Shown here piece after piece: positions 5,563 to 20,037 of a stretch of 64,000 bases of DNA (positions are counted from its first letter, which is position 1; each line of letters opens with the position of its first letter). Below the pieces are notes generated by a model, which was not told the origin of the DNA, searched no databases, and was given only the letters and a program-made list of their open reading frames with translations. The position numbers and the translations under genes are program-made. Origin of the DNA: Vulcanimicrobiota bacterium (GTDB taxonomy: Bacteria; Vulcanimicrobiota; Xenobia; Xenobiales; JADMJV01); assembly GCA_050250895.1 (NCBI GenBank), contig JBFWNU010000001.1, forward strand, positions 3,744,149 through 3,808,148, in the 5' to 3' direction.

Positions 5563-7665
5563 ATGACCGAGCGACGGCATCAGGCACTGATGGGCCTGCT
5601 GACTCGACTGAGTCGGGCCCAGACCGAGCGCGAGGCCTATCATGAGGTCGCGCGGGCGTTGGCCTTTCTCACTGCGGTGGCGCGAGTCAGCCTGGCCGTT
5701 GTTTGTCCCGACGGGCAATCGGTCGAGGTCATCGCTCTGTCGGGCTGTGCGGCCGAACTGCCTCAGGGCAAGATTCTGCCGCTGGAGCATACGGCCATGG
5801 CCCGCGCACTTGAGCTCCGGCGTAGTTACGCCTGGCGGATCGGCTCCCACCCCGAATTTCTCGAGAACGACCTCCTGGCCGACCCGGGTCTGCGCGAAGC
5901 GATCAATTTTCCCCTGATCGTGGGAGAGAGCGCCATCGGGACCCTCAACCTGGCAGGCGGCAGCCTGCACCAGAACGACCTGCATACCGCCTACGAGGTT
6001 GCCGCCATGCTGGCAGCGACCCTGGAACGGTTGAAACTGGTGCGCCGGCTGGCCGTGGAACTGGAAGCCGAACAGGTCTACATCAAGAAGCTCGAGGTGC
6101 TCTCGGAGCTGTCTGCCAAGCTCTCCGGTGCAACCTCAAGAGACGAGGCGTTCCGGCTCGTCTTCGAGCGCCTGGGTCGTATCCTACCGGTGGGCCGAAT
6201 GAGTATCGTCTCGTTGAGTGGTCCAGACGAGGTGACGGTGGTGTTGGTCGATGGCCATCAGGCCGTGCCCGTGGGATCTCGTATACCCCCCAGCGCGGTT
6301 GGCTTGTCGCCGCTGGTGAACCAGGCGCGCCCGGTTTTCTTACCCGACCTGTCGAAGTCTTCGTCTCCGGTCCATCAGACCCTGGTCAAAGCGGGCTTTC
6401 GCTGCGCCGCCTCGCTGCCGTTGATAGCCTTGGGAAAGGTGGTGGGAGCTCTCAATCTGGCCTCTTGCGATCCCGACTTGCTGGCTCCCAAGTCCAAGGG
6501 TCTGCTCCAGGTTGTCGGTGTGGGACTGGGAGCGACCATCGAGCGGGTGGCCGCCGAAGACCGTCTGCGCGAGGCTCAAAAGCTCGAGAGCCTGGGGGTG
6601 CTCTCGGGTGGTCTGGCGCACGATTTCAACAACCTGCTGGGGGTGGCCCTGGGCAATCTGAGCCTGGTGCAAGACAGCCTTAGCTCGGAGCATCCTCTCC
6701 AGGCCGAGCTTGGTTGCATCCAGCAGGCCATCGAGAAAGGGGCAGGCCTGACGCGCCAGATGCTCGCCTACGCCGGCAAGTCGACTCCCGAGACCTCGGT
6801 GGTGGATCTCAACCAGGCCGTGCTCGATCTTTCCGGGATGATGTCACCCACTCTGGGCAAGACGGTCGAGCTGCGGTGCGAGTTGAGCCAGCCCGGCCCC
6901 ACGGTGATGGGCGACTCTTCCCAACTGCAACAGGTCCTCTTCAACCTCATCACCAATGCCCGTGAAGCCATCAATGGACAGGGCATCATAACCCTCAAAG
7001 TGGACACTCTGAGCGTGAGCGCCGACGGCGGCTGGCAAGTCGAACCCGGACGCTATGCCTGGATCAGCTGTCAGGACACGGGCTGTGGCATCGCGCCCCA
7101 GCACCTCGACCGAGTCTTTGACCCGTTCTTCACGACCAAGGCTCGCGGCAGCGGCCTGGGTCTGTCGACCGTGCTGGGGGTCGTGCGTTCCCACAAAGGA
7201 GATCTGCGGGTGCGCTCGCAACCCGGTCAGGGCTGCCTGGTCGAGGTTCTGCTGCCGATGGTCACCGAAGCGCCTCGCCAGGTGACCGGCTCCGGCCCGC
7301 TGGTCTACGTGGTGGACGACGAGCAGCAACTGCTGAGAGTAGCCAGCCGCATGCTCGAACGACTGGGGTTCGAGGTATGCACCGCCAGCGACGGTCAGGA
7401 GTTGCTCGATCGTTTGGTCGAAGAGACCCGCCCGGTGGCGGCTGTCTTGATGGACCTCTCCATGCCGCGTATGGGAGGCCTCGAGGCTTCGCGCCGCTTG
7501 TTCGAATCGCGAGGCGAAGTGCCCATCGTGCTCATGAGTGGTTACGATCGCGAGGACAGCCTGCGCGACGGAGTGCAACCCAACGTCAAGAACTTCCTGG
7601 CCAAGCCGTTTCGTCTGGAAGGGTTGCGGGCGGCCATGCAGGCCGCTGTAGAACTACCGGTCTAG
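5563..7665 (+). CDS. Hybrid sensor histidine kinase (2x GAF, HisKA, HATPase, receiver)
   Basis: LAHDFNNLL H-box, NLITNA, FDPFFTTK, GSGLGLS, receiver VVDDE...MDLSMP. Confidence 0.92.
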   Translation: MTERRHQALMGLLTRLSRAQTEREAYHEVARALAFLTAVARVSLAVVCPDGQSVEVIALSGCAAELPQGKILPLEHTAMARALELRRSYAWRIGSHPEFLENDLLADPGLREAINFPLIVGESAIGTLNLAGGSLHQNDLHTAYEVAAMLAATLERLKLVRRLAVELEAEQVYIKKLEVLSELSAKLSGATSRDEAFRLVFERLGRILPVGRMSIVSLSGPDEVTVVLVDGHQAVPVGSRIPPSAVGLSPLVNQARPVFLPDLSKSSSPVHQTLVKAGFRCAASLPLIALGKVVGALNLASCDPDLLAPKSKGLLQVVGVGLGATIERVAAEDRLREAQKLESLGVLSGGLAHDFNNLLGVALGNLSLVQDSLSSEHPLQAELGCIQQAIEKGAGLTRQMLAYAGKSTPETSVVDLNQAVLDLSGMMSPTLGKTVELRCELSQPGPTVMGDSSQLQQVLFNLITNAREAINGQGIITLKVDTLSVSADGGWQVEPGRYAWISCQDTGCGIAPQHLDRVFDPFFTTKARGSGLGLSTVLGVVRSHKGDLRVRSQPGQGCLVEVLLPMVTEAPRQVTGSGPLVYVVDDEQQLLRVASRMLERLGFEVCTASDGQELLDRLVEETRPVAAVLMDLSMPRMGGLEASRRLFESRGEVPIVLMSGYDREDSLRDGVQPNVKNFLAKPFRLEGLRAAMQAAVELPV

Positions 7666-9848: not shown

Positions 9849-12800
9849 CTAGAATCGACTACTCGTCTGAAACCAGAAGCGCGGGCTGCCCAGTTCGTCG
9901 AAAGCGGCCCGCACCAGCAGGTTGTAAGCAAACCGCCACTCGATGCCGTAGAGGTTCTCGGTGTCTCCGTTGGAGCGGATGACGCGGGTCAGGGTCAGCA
10001 GGAAGCGGTCTTGCTCGTCGAGCGACTTGGCCAGTTTAATGACGTAATCGGCAGGAGGGATATAGTCGAACGAGACCTCGGTCAGCGAGAAGGCGCGACC
10101 GATTCCCTCGGTCAAAGGGCTGGTCAGAAATCCGGTGAGATACGAAGTTCCCGCCGTGGTCAAGAAGTTCCCAACCGAAGGGTCGGTGGAGGCGGTGGTC
10201 TCGCCGGTCAAAGCCGAAGGAAGCCCACCCATGACCAGCAGCCGAGAAATCTCGGACTGGGTGAGATAAGGCTGGGAGCTGTAGGAAATGCGCAGGTCGG
10301 GATAGACGCCGCTGACCGTGGCGTAGATGCGATAGCCGCCAAGATCGGTCTGAGCCACCACTCCCTGTAGTTCTGGGATGACGGGTCCGGTCCAGCGGAC
10401 TTCGCCGGTGCGCAACTGCAAGCGGATGTCTGAAAAGGGGATGCGGATGGTGCCGCGAGAGAGCGCCAGAGTTCCAAACAGGGAAGGCATGGGTTGCTCG
10501 GGTTGACGGCGGACCTGCAGGTCGCCGCCCACTCGCACTCTAGAGTCCATGGCCTCGGCCCACACATCGTCGCCCAGACTCACGTCGAGATCCATTCCTA
10601 CGGGGGGCAGCGACACCTCGGACTGCACGCCCTCACCTTCCACCGCTTTGACCGGAAGGTCGATGTTGCCCTGGGGAATATCGATGCTGCCTACCATGAC
10701 CGGAACGACCGTCTGGCCATCGGCCGAAGGACGACCCTCCACCGCCAGGTCCATGGTGAACTTGCCCGAGAACAGGTCGGGCAGGCGCAAGGGCAGGTCC
10801 TTTCCGAACAGGCGCGCGTCGATATAGACAGGCTCGAGGCCGACCAATTCGGCTTTGCCGCCGGCCTGGATGGGCTGGCCGTTGAGCTGGGCCTGGAAGC
10901 TCTCGATGGCGTAGCGGTTGATGATGGCACCGTCTAGATTGCGACCAACCGGCGAGACCTCGGCCTCGTCGGCGCCGATGCGGTCAAACGTCAGCAGGCT
11001 GTTGAGGCCGCTGAGTTCGCCGAACGTCTCACCCTGGATCCGTCCGTCGCTGACCTGCACCTGGCCGGTCAGGTCGGGCGCGTTGAGCTGGCCCTGGAGT
11101 GTGAGGTTGCCTTCCAGGTTGCCGGCCGTTTGATAGTTCTCTCCCAGAATCGCCTGGGCCAGGGCCAGTCCCTTATCGACGAGGCTCGCCTGCATCTCGA
11201 CCTGCGAGTCGCGCCGGAGTTCGCGGCCCTGCCAGACGGGAGCCAGTCGATCCTGGGGTACGGGCTCGGCCTGACGCCAGTCGAACTCGGCCCAGCCGTC
11301 CAGGCTCAGGGCGTGGTCGGGGCTGGGAGTCGGCCCCAGGAACACCCTGGCAGGCTCGCCTCTAGGCCCCTGAAAACGGACTCGACCGTCGCCTTCGCTG
11401 GCCAATCCTACGATGGTTTGGACCACGGACACGCCACCCAGTTCGGCCTGATCGGACTGGAGGAAGGCTCCCAGTTCGGGCCGCAGCAGCGGTCCGCTCA
11501 GGTTGACTTCGAGGCTGTCGATGTTGCCCTGGGCTTTAAGCCAGTCGGGCAAGAAGCTACTCAAAGGGATGCCTCCGGCTCCCAGGTGGAGTTCGCTCTC
11601 GGGGCGGGCGTCAGGCGCCTGCATCAGAGCCAGATTGGCCTCCCCCTCGAGGTGGCCCTGCCGCTCTTCGCCCTGATGGAAGTCGAAGGCAGTCATTCCC
11701 GCCACCAGGCGGCCGGCCGTGCCGTCGCGTCGATAGGCGATCGTGGTCGGCTCTTCCAGGCTGATCTTGCGGTCGCCGCTCTGCAGCTCGAAGTCTTGCA
11801 GCTCGAGTTGATAGCTGGGAAGGCCCGGTCCCGCGGCCAGCAGGTGGTCGCGATACCACTGTCCCTCCAGGGTCAGCGTTCCGCTGGCGGTGACCCGCGC
11901 TGGTCCTGACTGCTGATCCATCAGCAGAGCCACGGCCCGGTCGGTGAGATGGGTGGCCTGGGCCCGAAAAGGCACGCCGGCTCGTCCAAAGTCGGGCCCG
12001 TCGGGCGAGGTCAGATAGCTCAAAAGTGGCTGGGTCGGAAGCCCTGCCGAGACCGCGCCCGAGGCGGTGACCACGCTGTCTTCCAGGCGGGCGTGAAAGC
12101 CCTGGTCAGGAATGCGGATGGCTACCCGGTCGCCTTCGATGCGAACTTGCACGCCATGCTCGGGGTCGGTCACCAGTTCGTCATCCCGACGCTGGATTCG
12201 CCCCAAGACCAGCTCTTCGATGGTCACCCCCCGGTAGTCGACCGCCTCGGACTCGAAAGCCACATAAAGGCTCGTGCCCTCCAGGTGCGCGGCCGCGTCG
12301 GCGTTGCCTTTCAGGTCGTTTCTCAGGCGAGCCAGCGGGAAGCTCTCGGCCCAGAAGTCCCCCTCCAGCCGACCGCTGGCGGTGCGTTTGCCTCGACCTC
12401 GCAATTGGGCGTCGCCGCTCTGCACCAGCAGGTCGCTCAGGCGGATTTCCCCTTGTTGGCCGCTGAAGTCGAGGCGGGCCAGGTCGATGGGGATGGTTTG
12501 GTCGGCCAGTCGCAAGCCGCCGTTCTCCAATTCGACGGTCCCGGCCAGGGACGGACTCGAGGGGCTGCCCCACAGGTGCAGGTTGTTGCTCGAAACCAGA
12601 CCCCAGGGAATCAGTCCTGCCATGCTCTCGGGGGCCAGCAAAGCGAGTTCGCGGGCCGGCCAGTGAGAGACCTTCAGGCGCAGGTCGACAGCCTGAGCCG
12701 AGACCTTGCCCTGAGCCGAGATCATGTCGGGGCCAAACTCGCCTCTTTCCAGCCGAGGGTCGAAGGTCTGGCCCGACAACAAGAGATTGAGCGATTGGTC

Positions 12801-15407
12801 GAGGCGAGCCGCCATCGAGTAGTAGTAGCGTTGCTCGGCCCCGGGGCGTGAGAGAACCATCCAGGGAACCTCGACTCGTCCGCCGGGTTGGGGATTGCTC
12901 CAGCTGCCGCCCAGGTGACCTCGGGCCGAAACCAGCCCCGACTCGACCTGGAAAGGCAATTCGATCGTATTGAGGGTGGCCAGCCAGCCCAGATCCAGGC
13001 CGGCGGCGATAAAGTTGAAATCTAATCGGCGGGTGGCCAGGTTGGTGGTCCCGTTGACCAGCACCGAGTTGTGCCCAGGAAAGGGAAAGCTGTCGTAAAC
13101 CACCGGCTCCAGCGGCGGAGCCATGTTCGGCCCGAAGAATTCATAGGCATGACCATGATAGCCGATCACCGGCAGGTCCACCTCAGGGGTAAAGTGAGTC
13201 TCCCAGGTCAGTAGATTGCGCTCGAGAGCCAGCAAGTTGCCGCGCAGTCGACCCTCACCGCTCAAGAGCATGCGGTCCACCGCGAGCTGAGTGGGTTGGA
13301 GCGTTCCATTGTAGACCAGTTGCAGGTCGTTGAGGCTGCCGTAGCCCGCCCCCTGGGCCAGCACGCGTCCCTGGCCCGGCTGCAAGGCGTCGACCCAGGC
13401 CAGGGCCCGCACGCCACCATCCGGGCGGCGCTGGCCCTGAGCCACCAACTTCAGATTGGGCGCCTCGGCCGCAGCCGCGAACACGGCCGCGCCGTCGCCG
13501 CGGCCCAGCACCTTGACCACCCCGTCGCCGCGCGACCCGTTGAGTTCGAGGTTGCTGCCTCGGGCCACCAGGTCCACGCTCTGCTCGTTCAACCACACCT
13601 CGGCGGCCATTTCCACCGAACCACCCAGGGCCTCGGCCCTCAAGTCGGGCAGCAGAAGCTGTTGCAGGTTAGCCGCGAAAGGTCCCCGCACTCCGCTGGC
13701 CTGATAGCCGCCGTAACTCACGCTGCCGCCCTCGAGATGCCCTACCGCGCGCAGGCTCTCCAACTCATCCAGGTCTCCCCAGAACGTGGCTCGGCCGGCC
13801 AGGTTGGCGCTGGCCCCCCCGCCCGACCAGGCAAACCCCGGCGTGTTGGCGACTCCCACCACTTCCTTGGTCTCGGGATCGACGAAGGTGAAGGGCAGAT
13901 TGACGGTCGAGCCAGCTCCGCTGGCCGACCCGTCATAGACCATCACGGTCTCGCGGCTCGCCAGAAATCGACCTCGGGCCTCGGTCAAGCCCTGGCTCCA
14001 GGCGCCCAGCCCGCGCAGGCTACCCTGGCCAAACACCAGCGGTTGCTTTTGGGTGCCCACCACGGCCACGGAAAAATCGGCCTCTTCGGCCACGCCCGGC
14101 ACCATCTCAGAGACCCGGGCGCCCTGCCCCTGCAGGTGCAACAACACCCCGGGCTCACCCTCCAGAAAGGCCAACCCGCTGCCGCTGAAATTGCCCAGCG
14201 GGCTCTGGGCTTGGATCTCCTGGAGGGTCAGCAACTGGTCGACGAGTTCGAATCTGGCCTTGACACGCTCGAGCGGACGCCCTTCGACGCGCAGGTCCTG
14301 GCCGGTCACAAGACCCTCGATGCGAGGCCGCTCGGGGGTGCCCTCGATGGTGGCATCCAGGGCCACCTTGCCCTTGGCCGCCGGTGCCTGAGCCACGATC
14401 TCACGGGCCCGAGCCAGATCGAGTTCGGGCATCTGCAGCGAGAGATACAGTCCCCCCAATCCCGCTTCGCCCCAGAGCTTGAAGGGGCTGTCTTTGACCG
14501 TGCCGGTCAGTCCTTCGGTGCTGACGGTGCGGCCGGCCACCTCGAGCTTGCCGGAGAGATGCTCGACCCCCACCGGCAGGCTGGGCACCTGGGCGCTCAA
14601 GTCGTGCAGTTCGAGTTCGCCCACCGCAAACGCCTGACCGGCCAGTCCTCCCCAGCTCTCGGCCTGGCTGTGCAGGGTCAGATCTCCGCTGACCCGACCC
14701 TCTTCGATCAGGGCCGAGCCCATGCCGGTGAAGGGGGTGAGATCGAGGTCTTCGAAGGTGGTTCGCAGATGCACCCCCGGGGGGTCAAAGCGCACCGAGC
14801 CCACCACCGGCATGGCCTTCTCGGCGTTCATCGGTCGCACTCGCAGGTCGAGTTCGGCTTGACCCTCGTGAAACTGCAAAAAGCCATCCACCTCGGACAT
14901 CTCGTAGAGCAAGCCCAATCCCCGCGCGTCGCGATAGATAGCGTAGCCGTCTTCGAGGGTGATGCTGCCCTCGTAGAGGCTCAGGAAACCCCCGCCTTCA
15001 CTGGTGCTCTCAGGCAGTAGCCCGGCCAGGTTGAACTGGCCCGCTTTGTCCACCACCAGACGTAGGCCCGGCCGGGTGAGCACGATTCCATCGATCCCGC
15101 GGGCCCAGTGGTCGGTGAGCAACCTGCGCAGGTTGAAATCGATGAGCATCTCGTCGGCGGTGATCACCGGCTCGCCCTGGGTGTTCGTCACGCTCACATC
15201 CTCGAGGCGTACCGCGCCCAGCCCCAATCGAGCGTGGCTAAAGCGGATGTCTCCATTGATCTGCTCGCGCATGGGCGCTAACACCAGCCGCGCCAGCGGC
15301 TCGAAGAAGAGAAAGAGCCCGACCACGGCGAGCAAAAGCAACGCTGCCAACACCAGGCTGCCCCGGAGGAAGATCTTTTTTAGAAGCGGCAGGTTGACTT
15401 GGGCCAT
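9849..15407 (-). CDS. tamB: Translocation/assembly module TamB/AsmA-like protein
   Basis: 1852 aa, N-terminal membrane anchor, repetitive beta-rich body, C-terminal DUF490-like region (SSQPYLTQSEISRLL). Confidence 0.8.
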   Translation of the reverse strand: MAQVNLPLLKKIFLRGSLVLAALLLLAVVGLFLFFEPLARLVLAPMREQINGDIRFSHARLGLGAVRLEDVSVTNTQGEPVITADEMLIDFNLRRLLTDHWARGIDGIVLTRPGLRLVVDKAGQFNLAGLLPESTSEGGGFLSLYEGSITLEDGYAIYRDARGLGLLYEMSEVDGFLQFHEGQAELDLRVRPMNAEKAMPVVGSVRFDPPGVHLRTTFEDLDLTPFTGMGSALIEEGRVSGDLTLHSQAESWGGLAGQAFAVGELELHDLSAQVPSLPVGVEHLSGKLEVAGRTVSTEGLTGTVKDSPFKLWGEAGLGGLYLSLQMPELDLARAREIVAQAPAAKGKVALDATIEGTPERPRIEGLVTGQDLRVEGRPLERVKARFELVDQLLTLQEIQAQSPLGNFSGSGLAFLEGEPGVLLHLQGQGARVSEMVPGVAEEADFSVAVVGTQKQPLVFGQGSLRGLGAWSQGLTEARGRFLASRETVMVYDGSASGAGSTVNLPFTFVDPETKEVVGVANTPGFAWSGGGASANLAGRATFWGDLDELESLRAVGHLEGGSVSYGGYQASGVRGPFAANLQQLLLPDLRAEALGGSVEMAAEVWLNEQSVDLVARGSNLELNGSRGDGVVKVLGRGDGAAVFAAAAEAPNLKLVAQGQRRPDGGVRALAWVDALQPGQGRVLAQGAGYGSLNDLQLVYNGTLQPTQLAVDRMLLSGEGRLRGNLLALERNLLTWETHFTPEVDLPVIGYHGHAYEFFGPNMAPPLEPVVYDSFPFPGHNSVLVNGTTNLATRRLDFNFIAAGLDLGWLATLNTIELPFQVESGLVSARGHLGGSWSNPQPGGRVEVPWMVLSRPGAEQRYYYSMAARLDQSLNLLLSGQTFDPRLERGEFGPDMISAQGKVSAQAVDLRLKVSHWPARELALLAPESMAGLIPWGLVSSNNLHLWGSPSSPSLAGTVELENGGLRLADQTIPIDLARLDFSGQQGEIRLSDLLVQSGDAQLRGRGKRTASGRLEGDFWAESFPLARLRNDLKGNADAAAHLEGTSLYVAFESEAVDYRGVTIEELVLGRIQRRDDELVTDPEHGVQVRIEGDRVAIRIPDQGFHARLEDSVVTASGAVSAGLPTQPLLSYLTSPDGPDFGRAGVPFRAQATHLTDRAVALLMDQQSGPARVTASGTLTLEGQWYRDHLLAAGPGLPSYQLELQDFELQSGDRKISLEEPTTIAYRRDGTAGRLVAGMTAFDFHQGEERQGHLEGEANLALMQAPDARPESELHLGAGGIPLSSFLPDWLKAQGNIDSLEVNLSGPLLRPELGAFLQSDQAELGGVSVVQTIVGLASEGDGRVRFQGPRGEPARVFLGPTPSPDHALSLDGWAEFDWRQAEPVPQDRLAPVWQGRELRRDSQVEMQASLVDKGLALAQAILGENYQTAGNLEGNLTLQGQLNAPDLTGQVQVSDGRIQGETFGELSGLNSLLTFDRIGADEAEVSPVGRNLDGAIINRYAIESFQAQLNGQPIQAGGKAELVGLEPVYIDARLFGKDLPLRLPDLFSGKFTMDLAVEGRPSADGQTVVPVMVGSIDIPQGNIDLPVKAVEGEGVQSEVSLPPVGMDLDVSLGDDVWAEAMDSRVRVGGDLQVRRQPEQPMPSLFGTLALSRGTIRIPFSDIRLQLRTGEVRWTGPVIPELQGVVAQTDLGGYRIYATVSGVYPDLRISYSSQPYLTQSEISRLLVMGGLPSALTGETTASTDPSVGNFLTTAGTSYLTGFLTSPLTEGIGRAFSLTEVSFDYIPPADYVIKLAKSLDEQDRFLLTLTRVIRSNGDTENLYGIEWRFAYNLLVRAAFDELGSPRFWFQTSSRF

Positions 15408-15520: not shown

Positions 15521-16774
15521 ATGCGAGTCCTGATGTTGCTCATACTCCTTCTTGCCGTGCCGGTCCTGGGTGCCGAGCAAACGAGTTGCCTGGTGTGTTC
15601 GGTCGAGGAGGGGCAGATTCACTTCGAAGACTGTCCTGTATCCCAAGAAGCCAACGGCCAGACCGTCTACTTTTGCAAAGAAGAGTGCCAGGCTCGCTTC
15701 AACTCCAATCCCGAGGATTGGCTGGCTCGCTACGCGGCCCTTAAGACTCCCGCGGCTACGGGGGGCAAGATGCCCGCTTTCGAGTTTCCGCTCGAACCGG
15801 CCGGCGTGCTTGCCTCCGAGCACCTCCAGGGCAAGGTCTTGCTGATCAACTGCTGGGCCACCTGGTGCGGGCCCTGCATGGAAGAGATGCCCGCTCTGGT
15901 CAAGCTGCAACAGAAGTACAAAGATCGGGGTCTGGTGGTCATCGGGCTTTCGTTTGACGAACAACCGGCCCAGTATCGCCAGGGTCTCGACAAGCTCGGC
16001 CTCAACTTCGTGTCGGTGCTGGCCAAGCAGCCCAAGGTTGCGTCTTTCCTCGAGCAGGTCGGTCCGGTGAAGGCGATTCCGGTGAGCTTTATCGTCGACG
16101 GCCAGGGCACGATCGTCCATCGCCTCGAGGGCTCTCGCACCTTGGAAGAGTTCGAGGCCATGCTCGAGCCGCTGCTTCCGGCCGCTCCCGAAGAACACGC
16201 CTCGGGCGGCTCGCTGACACCCAGTTGACCTGGCTGACCCGGTGAGGGTCGCGCGGTCCGTGGGGCCGCCTCTATCGCAGAACACCGCTGGACCTACACT
16301 ACCCGGGTCGTACCCGGCATCGAGGTCGACCGGGCCAAGTGGCGCAATACCCTGGTCTATCGACTCAACGATGACCTGCAGATGGGCGTCGAGTACAACC
16401 CTCTCGGCCAGGACCTGGGCCTGCTGGTCAACTGGCGCCTCGTGCGCGAGACCTCGTCGAGTCCCGCGGTCGTGCTGGGGACCAGCTCGGACCGCATCGG
16501 CACGCCCAATGGCCGGGCTTACTATCTGACCCTTTCCAAGGAAGTGGCTGACGGCCTGGGTGTCTATGTGGGAGCGATGTACGGCGAGTTCGACGACAAA
16601 GTCCGTATCCCGGCCGGCGTTTCCTACCAATTCGATGACCACTGGTCGACCCTGTTCGCTTATGACGGCGTCAACGGCCATCCCATGGTGACCTACAGCT
16701 GGGACCGCTACAACCTGACGCTGCTCTTCGTCGGCTCGCGTCACCCCGGCCTTTCCTTCGGCGTCGGCTTCTGA
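15521..16774 (+). CDS. Putative selenoprotein: signal peptide + YHS + TlpA thioredoxin + U-P-G-U + outer-membrane beta-barrel (417 aa if both TGA are recoded)
   Basis: Track ORFs 15455-16228 and 16382-16774 share one frame; TGA 16226 and 16235 separated by CCT GGC; 48 sense codons follow with no in-frame start; C-terminal Phe. YHS (CLVC...YFCKEEC) and WATWCGPC domains are secure; the readthrough is inferred. Confidence 0.7.
16244..16272 (+). promoter_or_regulatory. Candidate bacterial SECIS hairpin
   Basis: GCGGTCC-GTG-GGGCCGC stem-loop (16253-16269), G-initiated loop 22 nt after the second TGA and 31 nt after the first. Confidence 0.55.
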
Positions 16775-16804: not shown

Positions 16805-17234
16805 GGCTGGCTAGAGTACGGGACGTGGTGGTGCCGTACCCCGGGTTTGGCTGGGCCGGGCGAGTACGGCACGTGGTGGTGCGGTACCTGGGCTTGTCCC
16901 GGGGCTGGGCGGAGTACGGCGCGTGGTAGTGCCGGATTCGGCACCTGGTGGTGCCGTACCGCGGGTTTGGCTGGGCCGGGCGGCGTACGGCACGTGGTGG
17001 CGCCGTACCCCGGGTTTGGCCGGGCTGGGCGGAGTACGGCACGTGGTGGCGCCGTACGCCGGGTTTGGCTGGGCCGTGCGAGTACGGCACGTGGTAGCGC
17101 CGGATTCGGCACCTGGTGGTGCCGTACCGCGGGTTGGGCTGGGCTGGGCGAGTACGGCACGTGGTGGCGCCGGATTCGGCACGTGGTGGCGCCGTACCCC
17201 GGATTTGGCCGGGCTCGGCCCTGCCTAGCCAGCC
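16805..17234. repeat. Modular palindromic repeat array 1 (7 units)
   Basis: Core GTACGGCAC-N6-GYGCCGTAC plus a G-rich linker; units at 16814, 16862, 16912, 16983, 17032, 17080, 17150; bracketed by inverted GGCTGGCTAG/CTAGCCAGCC. Confidence 0.9.
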
Positions 17235-17422
17235 AAGCCCACCAAAGCCCGCGATGCCAGCCAACGCCCGCCAGGCCAGCCCAAGCCCAAAAGAAATTCT
17301 GACCCACCGCGAACAAAATCCGTGCCAGCTCCGTCCATGGGTCGAACGAGGAGGGACTCTGCTTGGACATCACACTGACCCAAATAGGAAGGCGGTCGGG
17401 CAGCTTGGAAACACGAGTGAGC

Positions 17423-17944
17423 ATGGAACGCCCCCAACTGCTCGACCTGGTCACCCGCTTGCAAGGGGGCGACTCGGCGGCGCTCGAGCCGTTTATCCAG
17501 GCGACCCAGCAGGCCGCCTACAGGCTGGCGCTGTCGCATTTGCATGATGCGCAGCTGAGCCAGGACGCGGTGCAGGATGCTTATCTGGCGGTCTACCAGA
17601 ATATTGGCAAGCTGCGGGACCCGAACGCCTTTCGCACCTGGTTTTTTCGCATCATCACCAACTGCTGTCGTGACCTGGCCCGCAAGCGCAAGCCCGAGGC
17701 GACGCTGGAGGCGGTGGCCGAGCAGGCCGCTCCGGCGAGTTCGCCCGAGGACAAGCTCAGCGTGCGTCAGGCGTTCGACGAATTGGGCCAGCAAGACCGC
17801 ACCATTCTGACCCTGCGCGAGGTCTGCCAGTGCTCGTATGAAGAGATGGCCAGCACCCTCGAGGTGCCGGTGGGCACCATCAAGTCGCGGCTGGCCAAGG
17901 CGCGCCAGCGTTTTCTCGAAGTGTTTATGGGAGGGAAATCATGA
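17423..17944 (+). CDS. ECF RNA polymerase sigma-70 factor
   Basis: DAVQDAYL, FRTWFFRI (region 2); SYEEMASTLEVPVGTIKSRL (region 4). Confidence 0.93.
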   Translation: MERPQLLDLVTRLQGGDSAALEPFIQATQQAAYRLALSHLHDAQLSQDAVQDAYLAVYQNIGKLRDPNAFRTWFFRIITNCCRDLARKRKPEATLEAVAEQAAPASSPEDKLSVRQAFDELGQQDRTILTLREVCQCSYEEMASTLEVPVGTIKSRLAKARQRFLEVFMGGKS

Positions 17945-20037
17945 CCGAAGCAAAGTTCGAGCAATTCTCGGCCTGGCTCGACGGATACGAGCCGGCTCCC
18001 GAGGGGGAATGGGACCAGGCCAGCCTGGCTCTTGAGCAACTGGGTGAAGAGCTGCGTAAAGAGCAGATTTTGCCCGAGGACTTCGCCAGGCGAACGGCCG
18101 AGCGGGTGTTGACCACCGTGCCGGTGCCGTGGCTGCTGCGGCGGGTGTGGAGTCCCAAGCCGCTACCCTTTGCCTGTCTGAGCCTTAGCACCGTGGCCAT
18201 GCCGTGGCTGGCCAGCGCGTTGGGGCGGCCCTGGCAGCTCGGTCTGGCTCTGGGGGTTCTCTGGTTTCTGGGGGCAAGCCGGTTCTTGCCTCGAGGTAAA
18301 GCGGGTGAGGGTGGGCTGTTGGCTCCAGGCTGGTGTTTGGCCGGTGTGGTCTCGGTGACCGGTGGCCTGGCCGCCTGGATGCTGGCCGTATTTGGCAACA
18401 ACCTCGAGCGTTCCCTCGGTTCGAGTCTGCTGGCTATCCTGGTGGCGCTGGGGTTGGGAGGCCTGATGGTCTCTCAGCTCGGTCGCCTCTATCGCGAGTC
18501 GATGTTGCGACTGGCTCTGCGCAGCCGCTGGCTGGCCATGGCAGTGGCTGGAATGGTCGGCGGCCTGAGCGGCAGTTTGTTGGGGCTGGTGCCGAGGTTG
18601 TTGACCTCTAACCTCTGGTTCGCCTACGGCCCGGCCACCGACCTGGTTAGCTGGACCGGCGACTGGTCGCGGTTGGGGGCTATGGTTGGCCTTTTGCTGG
18701 GCGTCTTGAGCGCGGCCACGGTCGGCTATGACGAATTGCCGAAGCCCGCTGAAGAACTGGGCCGCCTGGTCAAGAAGGCCATCATCGGCGTGCTCATCAG
18801 TTCGGCCACTTTCGGCCTGGCCGGCTGGGCTGTGGTTCGCCACGTGCTCACCGTGCAGATGGTCGAGCCCGAGTGGGTGGGCCAATTGCAGATCGCGATG
18901 ACCGAAGAAATGATGGCTCCCATCAAGCCCGAACAAAACGGTTATGCGGTGCTGGAGGAGGTGCTCGACCGCGAGGCCGCTCAGGCCAGTAAGGCTCCTT
19001 ATCTGGCTCTGACCGATTTCTACCAGGTGAATCTCGAGCATCTGCCGCCCGAGTTGGTGGGACCGGTAGGTCAGGCCGTGCCCGCCTTCGAGGCCATCCT
19101 GCCTCGTATTGGCGAGGCGGTGGCCCGTCCCGAATACTCGAGTATGGCGGTCTACGGCTTTGGCCCCGAGGCCCAGACACCTGACTTTCAGACCCAACGA
19201 GGCATCGTCAAAGGGCTGGTGGTGCTGGGCCTGTATCGTGAGTCTCAGGGCGACGTTCAGGCGGCTCTTGACGCCTATCTGCTGGCTCTTGATTTCGGAA
19301 CTCGCGAAAGCGGAACCGGTGTGCTGGTGCACGAGATGGTCTGTGTCAACAACGTCCTCGACGTGGGTGGCCCTTTGACGGCTCTGGCCAACAGCGGTCA
19401 GCTCTCCCCGGCTCAGTGGCGCCAACTGGGAGCTGGGGTCGAAGGCTGCAAGTTGGATCCGCTCCACTTCGGAAAGGCCATGGACCACGAGTATCTGGCC
19501 GTGCTTCGCCTCTTCGACCGCAACACCAGCGATGAGTTCCCGGGTAGCGCCCCGGCCTTTCTGCTCGAGAGCGAGCGTACTGCTTATACCAACCTCTTCT
19601 TCGGTCACCGCAGCAGTTTCTATTCGCTAAACAGCACGGCCACCTTCGAAGAAGTCCGGGCCAGGTTTCCTTTCTCGGTGGTGATGCCGTCGCTGTTGCC
19701 CAACATCACGCGAGCCCAGTCGTTGTTCTGCGAGGCGCTCACCCGGCTCGAAGGCCTGCGCACGATGGCGGCCCTCGAGAACTATCGTCAGCAACGCGGC
19801 CACTATCCCGAGCAACTCGAAGCACTGGAGCGGCCGGCCTTTGACTACCTGGCGCCGCGCAAGAAGAATCGCCAGGCCGTCAGCGGGCCGATTCCGGGCG
19901 TGACCGAAGCCGAGCGCCTGGGGCTCGACGACCTGCCGACCCTAGCGTACGAGCGCGTGGGTGACAGCTATCATCTGGCGTCACGCAATCAGGATTGGGA
20001 CAGGTCGAAGTGGTCTGCGAAAGGCGTCTTCCGCTAG
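17941..20037 (+). CDS. Multi-TM membrane protein, probable anti-sigma factor with large extracytoplasmic domain
   Basis: ATGA-coupled to the ECF gene; short cytoplasmic N-terminus, several TM helices, GspG-like LENYRQQRGHYPEQLEAL near the C-terminus. Confidence 0.6.
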   Translation: MTEAKFEQFSAWLDGYEPAPEGEWDQASLALEQLGEELRKEQILPEDFARRTAERVLTTVPVPWLLRRVWSPKPLPFACLSLSTVAMPWLASALGRPWQLGLALGVLWFLGASRFLPRGKAGEGGLLAPGWCLAGVVSVTGGLAAWMLAVFGNNLERSLGSSLLAILVALGLGGLMVSQLGRLYRESMLRLALRSRWLAMAVAGMVGGLSGSLLGLVPRLLTSNLWFAYGPATDLVSWTGDWSRLGAMVGLLLGVLSAATVGYDELPKPAEELGRLVKKAIIGVLISSATFGLAGWAVVRHVLTVQMVEPEWVGQLQIAMTEEMMAPIKPEQNGYAVLEEVLDREAAQASKAPYLALTDFYQVNLEHLPPELVGPVGQAVPAFEAILPRIGEAVARPEYSSMAVYGFGPEAQTPDFQTQRGIVKGLVVLGLYRESQGDVQAALDAYLLALDFGTRESGTGVLVHEMVCVNNVLDVGGPLTALANSGQLSPAQWRQLGAGVEGCKLDPLHFGKAMDHEYLAVLRLFDRNTSDEFPGSAPAFLLESERTAYTNLFFGHRSSFYSLNSTATFEEVRARFPFSVVMPSLLPNITRAQSLFCEALTRLEGLRTMAALENYRQQRGHYPEQLEALERPAFDYLAPRKKNRQAVSGPIPGVTEAERLGLDDLPTLAYERVGDSYHLASRNQDWDRSKWSAKGVFR

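Follow-up and report, generated by a model that had tools for sequence, protein, structure and literature searches.

Do two in-frame TGA codons nine bases apart end a gene, or are they read as amino acids inside it? The question is raised by a locus in a 64,000-nucleotide stretch of contig JBFWNU010000001.1 (C1) from a Vulcanimicrobiota bacterium (assembly GCA_050250895.1; C1:3744149-3808148 of a 9.5-Mb genome in 17 contigs); this whole stretch is called the window below, and its positions are counted from its first letter. On the forward strand, an open reading frame (ORF) that begins at the ATG at 15521 reaches ...GGSLTPS-TGA-CCT-GGC-TGA (TGA-CCT-GGC-TGA at 16226-16237), runs on past the second TGA for 178 in-frame sense codons to ...GLSFGVGF, and closes with a TGA at 16772-16774. 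The earliest in-frame ATG, GTG or TTG beyond the second TGA is the ATG at 16382, 48 codons away, and neither a terminator-like nor a promoter-like site was found between the TGAs and the barrel encoded downstream. A first-pass annotation of this DNA had described an ORF of the YHS-TlpA type that continues through the two TGAs into 48 start-less codons, and the frame is as it was described. We read 15521-16774 as one gene for a secreted double selenoprotein of 417 residues, in which a hairpin directs the decoding of both UGAs as selenocysteine (Sec; U236 and U239) and which probably handles soft metals (probability roughly 0.85). Taken as separate parts, and judged from sequence, the assignment of both TGAs to Sec is very probable, and a metal-handling function has slightly less than an even chance.

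The gene (15521-16774, + strand) comprises 417 codons and the terminal TGA. It opens with a signal peptide, MRVLMLLILLLAVPVLGA (15521-15574; the cleavage site was placed by eye, without a predictor), and hydrophobic N-termini equivalent to it occur in all relatives. A Cys-rich YHS-like domain follows (15587-15730), with the pattern CxxC ... YFCKEEC...F...P and a weak Pfam match to YHS, and then a TlpA/ResA-like thioredoxin-fold domain (15758-16150) whose CGPC active site, C116-G-P-C119 within WATWCGPC, is encoded at 15866-15877. In a 2025 copy of Pfam, Redoxin and AhpC-TSA match residues 80-210 with 68 and 62 bits (68.2 bits for Redoxin against a cut-off of 26.6). In NCBIfam (release 20), the N-terminal part scanned alone matched thioredoxin-fold models only; TlpA (73.6 bits against 230) and ResA (81 bits against 170) both fell below their equivalog cut-offs, and a match to WAxxUGC_long (40 bits against 300) was confined to the ordinary thioredoxin fold. 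This part is best described as TlpA-like and not as an equivalog. The first TGA (16226-16228, U236) and the second (16235-16237, U239) form a U-P-G-U motif about 117 residues beyond CGPC, outside the Redoxin match. From the Sec pair, a conserved PGEGRAVRG... segment (16238-16288), present in all loci, leads to the first strand of a predicted 12-stranded outer-membrane beta-barrel with C-terminal GVGF (16289-16771), assigned from an AlphaFold2 model and fold searches.

The double TGA is shared by relatives. Forty of them were searched with the downstream (barrel) part and 9 were positive; all 9 carry in-frame (V/A)PS-TGA-PG-TGA-P(G/A)EG and a homologous open frame of 177-179 codons. What precedes the TGAs is YHS-like plus TlpA in 4 of the 9 (the window's genus and one other genus of its family) and a signal peptide with or without a short linker in the other 5 (a third genus of the family and a second family), as in MHDKMLALAFLLALSLPVRAQSTVPS-TGA-PG-TGA-PGEG. 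These short forms bear on the possibility that the locus holds two genes, with the TGAs as true stops, TlpA ending at Ser235 and the barrel starting at ATG 16382 or at a non-canonical start. Standard gene callers split the locus in this way: the entry for the window protein in a protein atlas begins at residue 49 of the downstream part, the TlpA part of locus L042 is deposited separately as a 308-residue protein, and most database homologues start past the TGAs. In L029 and L031, however, the upstream ORF is a 26-residue signal peptide and nothing else, and for such an ORF followed by two in-frame TGAs and a start-less barrel, read-through is the only reasonable reading. Two genes would also leave the barrel without a signal peptide; the first-pass annotation had remarked that the barrel has none of its own, and in the relatives the sole signal peptide indeed precedes the TGAs.

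The same junction recurs at a greater distance. A one-genome-per-species scan with the peptide GTSSDRIGT gave 471 relatives, and among the best 80 of these 471 distant loci, 79 have PS/PT/PA-TGA-P(G/L/S/V/M)-TGA-PGEG. The remaining one, L098 (4965-5030), combines a TGC at the first site with a TGA at the second (SCPL-TGA-PGEG) and may be an intermediate between Cys and Sec forms. The double TGA is thereby kept in 88 of 89 other loci (9 close and 80 distant), and in 81 junctions aligned without gaps TGA stands at the first site in 80, with TGC in L098, and at the second in all 81. By record title, the nearest carriers are Candidatus Xenobia and Vulcanimicrobiota and the bulk are Pyrinomonadaceae and other Acidobacteriota; Armatimonadota, Abditibacteriaceae and Bryobacterales are also named, and some titles are evidently those of mislabelled bins.

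When the 5 closest sequences were compared, all 10 of their pairs gave ratios of nonsynonymous to synonymous substitution (dN/dS) of 0.09-0.22 for the 48 start-less codons, which include the first predicted barrel strand, at a dS of 0.8-2.3 (saturated); these values indicate purifying selection on the protein. Against this conservation of the codons ahead of ATG 16382, and of the frame and its double TGA, the two-gene arrangement appears very improbable. A fused gene broken by two nonsense mutations, or by an assembly error, is another reading in which the TGAs would be stops, and a pair of stops at this spacing in a metagenome-derived genome could in principle be an error. This reading is refuted because the double TGA is conserved, across several phyla by title and at saturated dS, and we give it practically no weight. 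As a separate observation, the junction occurs twice in an Acidobacteriota record (L074), near 6046 and 7919, at a distance of about 1.9 kb. Starting at the first TGA, 60 bases are the same in both copies, which points to a recent tandem duplication of the entire gene.

What residue, then, stands at the two sites? A HMMER search of 1.84 billion representatives, with the junction and barrel as query and TGA read as Cys, returned 200 matches at E <= 0.001. Most are gene calls that start past the TGAs, in many cases with the conserved V/M-R/S-G, whose GTG or ATG serves as start codon, and the 19 of the 200 that were inspected in sequence are longer ones. In 8 of these 19, PTCAGCAGEAR aligns with PS-U-PG-U-PGEGR of the window and places Cys at both sites. 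Four of the eight (P0030, P0061, P0096 and P0130) consist of a signal peptide, PTCAGCAGEAR and the barrel. The other four are long forms (P0074, P0088, P0111 and P0123), and the three that were scanned (P0074, P0111 and P0123) have 1-3 significant YHS matches, with 65.4 bits in P0123 against a cut-off of 30.3. The YHS matches of these long Cys forms (CAGC) show that the YHS fusion recurs independently of Sec. Other site pairs are CALC in P0017 and CPLC in P0139. The first-pass annotation had looked to homologues with CxxC, CxxU or UxxU at this site for support, and TGA or Cys is found at exactly both positions, each of which thus has a classical Sec/Cys pair.

The TGAs might also be read through with another residue, by near-cognate suppression or by reassignment of TGA to Trp or Gly. 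Trp does occur at the Sec sites: at both in P0155, a metagenome sequence from a 1180-nt contig (VPAWPVWPGEGRAVRG) and the sole match in a search for full-length fused proteins (229-730 residues), and after Cys in P0025 (PACVGWPGEG). Such a Trp may reflect a genuine TGG codon or a gene call in which TGA was translated as Trp. Against a residue other than Sec, the gene itself and many ORFs of the window end in TGA, Cys aligns with the sites, and a covarying hairpin lies at the distance of a selenocysteine insertion sequence (SECIS). The host genome also has the full Sec machinery. Its selD, selA and selB genes are adjacent at C1:698421-702633 (L001, L003 and L006), all above curated cut-offs (358, 517 and 383 bits, respectively), and ARAGORN placed a tRNA-Sec with anticodon TCA at C1:1879539-1879630; the check for selA, selB, selC and selD proposed at first pass is answered by this cluster and tRNA. 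The host selD itself has one in-frame TGA (ACAG-TGA-ASKIRP).

Among the 40 relatives examined, selA is present in 9 of 9 that carry the barrel; the barrel occurs in 0 of 14 without selA, and 17 have selA and no barrel. Five of five distant carriers tested (4 titled Acidobacteriota, 1 Armatimonadota) have selA above the cut-off, and selA in all carriers tested again speaks against a residue other than Sec, which we consider highly unlikely. Because related genomes are not independent, this co-occurrence is read as consistency and not as a statistical test. A side observation concerns the order as a whole: its small-genome members (1.9-3.5 Mb; G017-G032, G034 and G038, of genera g5-g7) gave no selA match at E <= 0.001, and selA is present in all its large-genome families, so that Sec use in the order seems to follow lineage and genome size.

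If both UGAs are decoded as Sec, which signal directs this? The hairpin noted at first pass, GC-rich and with a G-initiated loop (h2; 16253-16269, + strand), is present: a 7-bp stem (16253-16259/16263-16269) closes a GUG loop at 16260-16262 with -11.0 kcal/mol, and the loop starts 31 nt past the first TGA and 22 nt past the second. The published constraints on a bacterial SECIS (bSECIS) are a loop of 3-9 nt, a stem of 4-16 bp, a G in the first two loop positions, a distance of 16-37 nt from the UGA and an energy of at most -7.5 kcal/mol (PMC13188914, section 5 and Fig. 2 legend). By the criteria given in those parts of the review, h2 lies within all constraints for both UGAs. In the selD gene of the host, a GUG loop on a 7-bp stem, the same shape as h2, lies 33 nt past the UGA and may be an internal example of what the host SelB recognises.

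Within the alignment of 81 junctions, the window's clade comprises 5 sequences at an identity of >= 75%. There, h2 is paired in every cell (35 of 35), and at 2 of its pairs both sides have changed; pairing in slid controls is no higher than 60%, and its score was attained by 15 of 500 shuffles. The hairpin thus covaries in this clade as well as being present. An alternative hairpin, h1, lies 4 nt upstream of h2 (16248-16266, + strand; -7.1 kcal/mol); it is weak in the window, whereas the other clades conserve this hairpin. Over 480 cells from 80 distinct sequences, h1 is 95.4% paired against at most 62.5% for slid controls; its covariation score was reached by 0 of 500 shuffles, and its pair 30:46 occurs as CG (36), UA (31), UG (4) and AU (3). 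A hairpin over the V-R/S-G codons is kept in every clade, with a shifted register. A long-range helix between CCGCUU, right after the first UGA, and GAGCGG, seen in minimum-free-energy folds of many Pyrinomonadaceae sequences, was rejected as a candidate because column 12 varies (G/A/C/T) while its would-be partner is invariant.

What the frame beyond the TGAs encodes had been described at first pass as a small outer-membrane barrel, and modelling bears this out. An AlphaFold2 model from a 41-sequence alignment has twelve strands that span model residue 37 to the C-terminal Phe, with a predicted local distance difference test (pLDDT) of 91.2 and a predicted template modelling score (pTM) of 0.85. 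Foldseek matched it to FapF and KdgM at E ~1e-5. An exhaustive structural search gave Z scores of 16.4 for KdgM and for the EstA autotransporter barrel, 16.2 for FapF and for the COG4313 channel, and 14-15 for NanC and LpxR; over the 12-stranded matches as a group, Z was 14-16.4 with 149-166 residues aligned at a sequence identity of 6-13%. In Pfam and NCBIfam the barrel has no family match, with YjbH below the cut-off only (18.5 bits against 24), and NCBIfam has no model for the junction plus barrel at E 0.1 nor for the barrel part at E 1.

Of the 36 residues that precede the barrel, those from residue 11 onward reach a pLDDT of 77-82, and DSSP assigns beta bridges at model residues 12-13/26-27. 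This segment and the codons at 16214-16219 are predicted to form a protein hairpin with UPGU(PGEG) at its tip. The FapF and autotransporter matches reach into the pre-barrel segment, the autotransporter alignments starting at model residues 15-18, and we infer that the UPGU hairpin may lie in or at the pore of the barrel.

Comparison of the loci shows a constant module, [signal peptide]-(S/T)-(U/C)-(P/A)-x-(U/C)-(P/A)-G-E-(G/A)-R plus barrel, in front of which TlpA, YHS or another Cys-rich domain is fused, with TlpA or YHS-TlpA alternatively encoded just upstream. In the window's clade the front part combines a YHS-like domain with TlpA; it is TlpA alone in L037, L093 and L102, YHS alone in L035, L040 and L092 (in L035 above the cut-off, 33.4 bits against 30.3), and nothing except the signal peptide in L028-L034. 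The Pyrinomonadaceae forms (L036 and L038-L101) have a Cys-rich domain of about 110 residues, GQVVCCxxCWAEADR ... SCV..GDPTL, followed by TlpA; Pfam gave no match to this domain other than a faint DUF5818. Upstream of these Pyrinomonadaceae forms, as an observation in its own right, lie genes for small secreted proteins rich in CCxxGASCC repeats or CCP motifs. At 4 of 10 loci without a fused TlpA (L028, L034, L040 and L092), the gene directly upstream, on the same strand, encodes TlpA or YHS-TlpA; BLASTP with the window part as query found no such gene at the other 6. With the YHS-like part of the window as query, BLASTP matched a CopA-type ATPase in L088, at its N-terminus, and the YHS-TlpA genes that lie upstream in L028 and L092.

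Neighbouring genes were counted within 6 kb at the 81 loci. P1B ATPases occur at 6 of 81, and 4 of these 6 carry CPC, YN....P and M..SS, which we take to be the signature of Cu(I)-type P1B ATPases. Genes for CDF transporters occur at 9 loci, directly downstream in 5, and PCYCGC-motif proteins at 7.

How might such a protein work? SelB with Sec-tRNA would decode both UGAs, steered by one hairpin in the coding sequence at an accepted distance from each. The product would run from the signal peptide through the YHS-like domain and the TlpA-like CGPC reductase to a linker ending in Ser-Sec-Pro-Gly-Sec-Pro-Gly-Glu-Gly and then to the 12-stranded barrel. Carried on the N-terminal hairpin, at the periplasmic mouth of the barrel or within it, the U-x-x-U pair would bind a soft metal, most likely Cu(I), or cycle between diselenide and diselenol; the fused TlpA would keep the pair reduced, and the barrel would move or hold the metal at the outer membrane. 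Soft-metal handling is proposed because relatives have fusions to YHS and TlpA and, nearby, genes for CopA-type ATPases, CDF transporters and Cys-rich proteins; YHS and the Cu-ATPases encoded nearby favour Cu(I) as cargo or ligand. The "redox or metal relay" at the outer membrane suggested by the first-pass annotation is made plausible by these fusions and neighbours, and it remains something that we infer.

Several results weigh against reading the locus as a hairpin-directed, metal-handling double selenoprotein. (i) As to decoding, h2 is paired in 55.7% of cells over all 81 sequences; h1 is paired in 76.7% within the window's clade, no better than shuffles, and was rejected on this ground as the SECIS of the window; and the register of the conserved hairpin differs by 4 nt between clades. 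Spacing is known from work in E. coli to matter. For predicted UxxU families it is accepted that one hairpin serves two UGAs at a distance of 9 nt, and the same is proposed here from the alignment of sequences; an Rfam scan of 16150-16400 with E up to 10 gave no match. (ii) As to the pair itself, it is absent altogether in some homologues (P0014 and P0023). (iii) As to metals, the Pfam YHS match of the window protein (residues 43-68, 17.1 bits against a cut-off of 30.3, E 0.0056) is below threshold. The union of loci with a CopA-type ATPase, CDF or PCYCGC gene amounts to 17 of 81 only, in related genomes and with no chance baseline, and no P1B ATPase, CDF or PCYCGC gene lies within 7 kb on either side of the gene in the window itself. 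PcoB (PDB 7pge) is a middling structural match (Z 8.5, root-mean-square deviation 4.7, 154 residues aligned), and the Pfam scan gave no CopB. The N-terminal domain of the window protein is, on this weak match, called YHS-like and not YHS; of the domains named at first pass, the TlpA-like CGPC reductase stood and YHS did not in full.

A double selenoprotein need not handle metals. It could instead be a redox device acting on peroxides, polysulfides or selenium and tellurium oxyanions, or an autotransporter-like protein that displays TlpA and YHS at the surface. Section 7 of PMC13188914 describes the majority of known selenoproteins as redox enzymes whose motif is UxxC, CxxU or UxxU. For surface display, 12-stranded autotransporter barrels are among the best fold matches, and their alignments include the pre-barrel segment. 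Type Va autotransporters have this same order of passenger, linker and C-terminal 12-strand barrel. Forms with no passenger exist, however (L029 and L031), and wherever a separate gene upstream encodes TlpA, the barrel lacks a TlpA fusion. Electrons reach TlpA-type reductases from the inner membrane, a point in favour of the periplasm, and the YHS fusions together with the CopA, CDF and Cys-rich neighbours point to metals. We regard a non-metal role as possible and somewhat less likely than metal handling.

Returning to the double selenoprotein with a metal role, one may ask whether its UGAs serve as a switch. In the fused forms, a stop at the first UGA would leave a soluble TlpA, and such an outcome is possible. 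Isoform switching by selenium cannot be the conserved purpose of the motif because termination in the signal-peptide-only forms (L028-L034) would yield nothing useful. A more specific proposal, which is tentative and on balance doubtful, is that U-P-x-U acts as a selenolate gate at or in a 12-stranded channel that passes or traps Cu(I)-like metals and is re-reduced by TlpA, with selenium supply picking the isoform in the fused forms. If true, this would be the first outer-membrane metal channel to use Sec, and a common unannotated selenoprotein of soil Acidobacteriota, Armatimonadota and Eremiobacterota-like bacteria.

The surroundings of the gene in the window are as follows. Divergent from it lies a TamB/AsmA-family gene for 1852 residues (9849-15407, - strand). 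Downstream, a gene for an extracytoplasmic function (ECF) sigma factor (17363-17944, + strand) is followed by a 698-residue ORF without a Pfam match (17941-20037, + strand), which overlaps the stop codon of the sigma factor gene and may encode its anti-sigma factor. Just downstream of the selenoprotein gene, at 16814-17219, are about 8 copies of a 48-49-nt repeat, each with a palindrome of the type GTACGGCAC...GTGCCGTAC; the array looks like a repetitive extragenic palindromic (REP)-like intergenic repeat between the selenoprotein gene and the ECF sigma gene.

Is the family already described? Table 1 of a May 2026 review (PMC13188914) lists 119 prokaryotic selenoprotein families, and no entry in that table fits a UPGU-barrel family. 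The entries that come closest are UxxU families with a different fold, UGC-TlpA, YHS (GxU) and two outer-membrane barrel families (PMC13188914). A term search of the open full-text literature and of the deep-Sep paper (PMC12013277), with supplements and subscription journals outside its scope, gave no description of the family either. It is apparently uncatalogued and widespread. The first-pass annotation had anticipated that standard gene callers would split the gene; in all cases examined it is split or truncated, the deposited pieces, divided at the TGA, being a truncated "hypothetical protein" or an unnamed stand-alone TlpA-type ORF. The family would add to the prokaryotic selenoproteome a widespread member with two Sec (471 relatives at one genome per species), place Sec on an outer-membrane barrel beside a dedicated reductase, offer a natural, testable case of two UGAs with one SECIS, and link selenium use to metal homeostasis in abundant soil bacteria.

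How does it compare with known systems? In the Prx-like thiol:disulfide oxidoreductase and SelL, UxxU is the active site of a thioredoxin fold, whereas the thioredoxin fold of the window protein keeps CGPC and UPGU lies in the linker before an outer-membrane barrel. What these proteins and the NF041115 and FmdB UxxU families share with it is two Sec residues two apart that mirror CxxC, presumably with one SECIS (PMC13188914, Table 1). The UGC-containing TlpA and Redoxin-family UxxC selenoproteins likewise combine a TlpA/Redoxin domain with secretion; unlike in the window protein, their Sec lies in the redox motif of the domain itself. Predicted outer-membrane barrel selenoproteins also have precedents, in the FCYXU-type TonB-dependent receptor and the MtrB/PioB-type barrel GSU2204 (PMC13188914, Table 1). 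Those are different and much larger barrels with a single Sec, and here a barrel of about 160 residues would have two Sec before its first strand.

PcoB/CopB is a small outer-membrane barrel found among copper-resistance genes, and its middling fold match with the window protein comes without a sequence-family match. PcoB has an N-terminal metal-binding stretch, with Met/His-rich motifs and not a Cys/Sec pair. The best fold matches are FapF, COG4313 and the autotransporter beta-domains, which have an N-terminal segment in the pore, and the KdgM/NanC porins, at 6-13% identity and with no shared family model; to our knowledge, none of these barrels carries a redox pair or Sec. In the TlpA-ScoI/CoxB system of Bradyrhizobium, a periplasmic TlpA reduces a Cys pair so that copper can bind. 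The same logic is proposed here for TlpA and UPGU, with the difference that TlpA acts there on a Cu protein with Cys, soluble or in the inner membrane, and here would act on a fused outer-membrane barrel.

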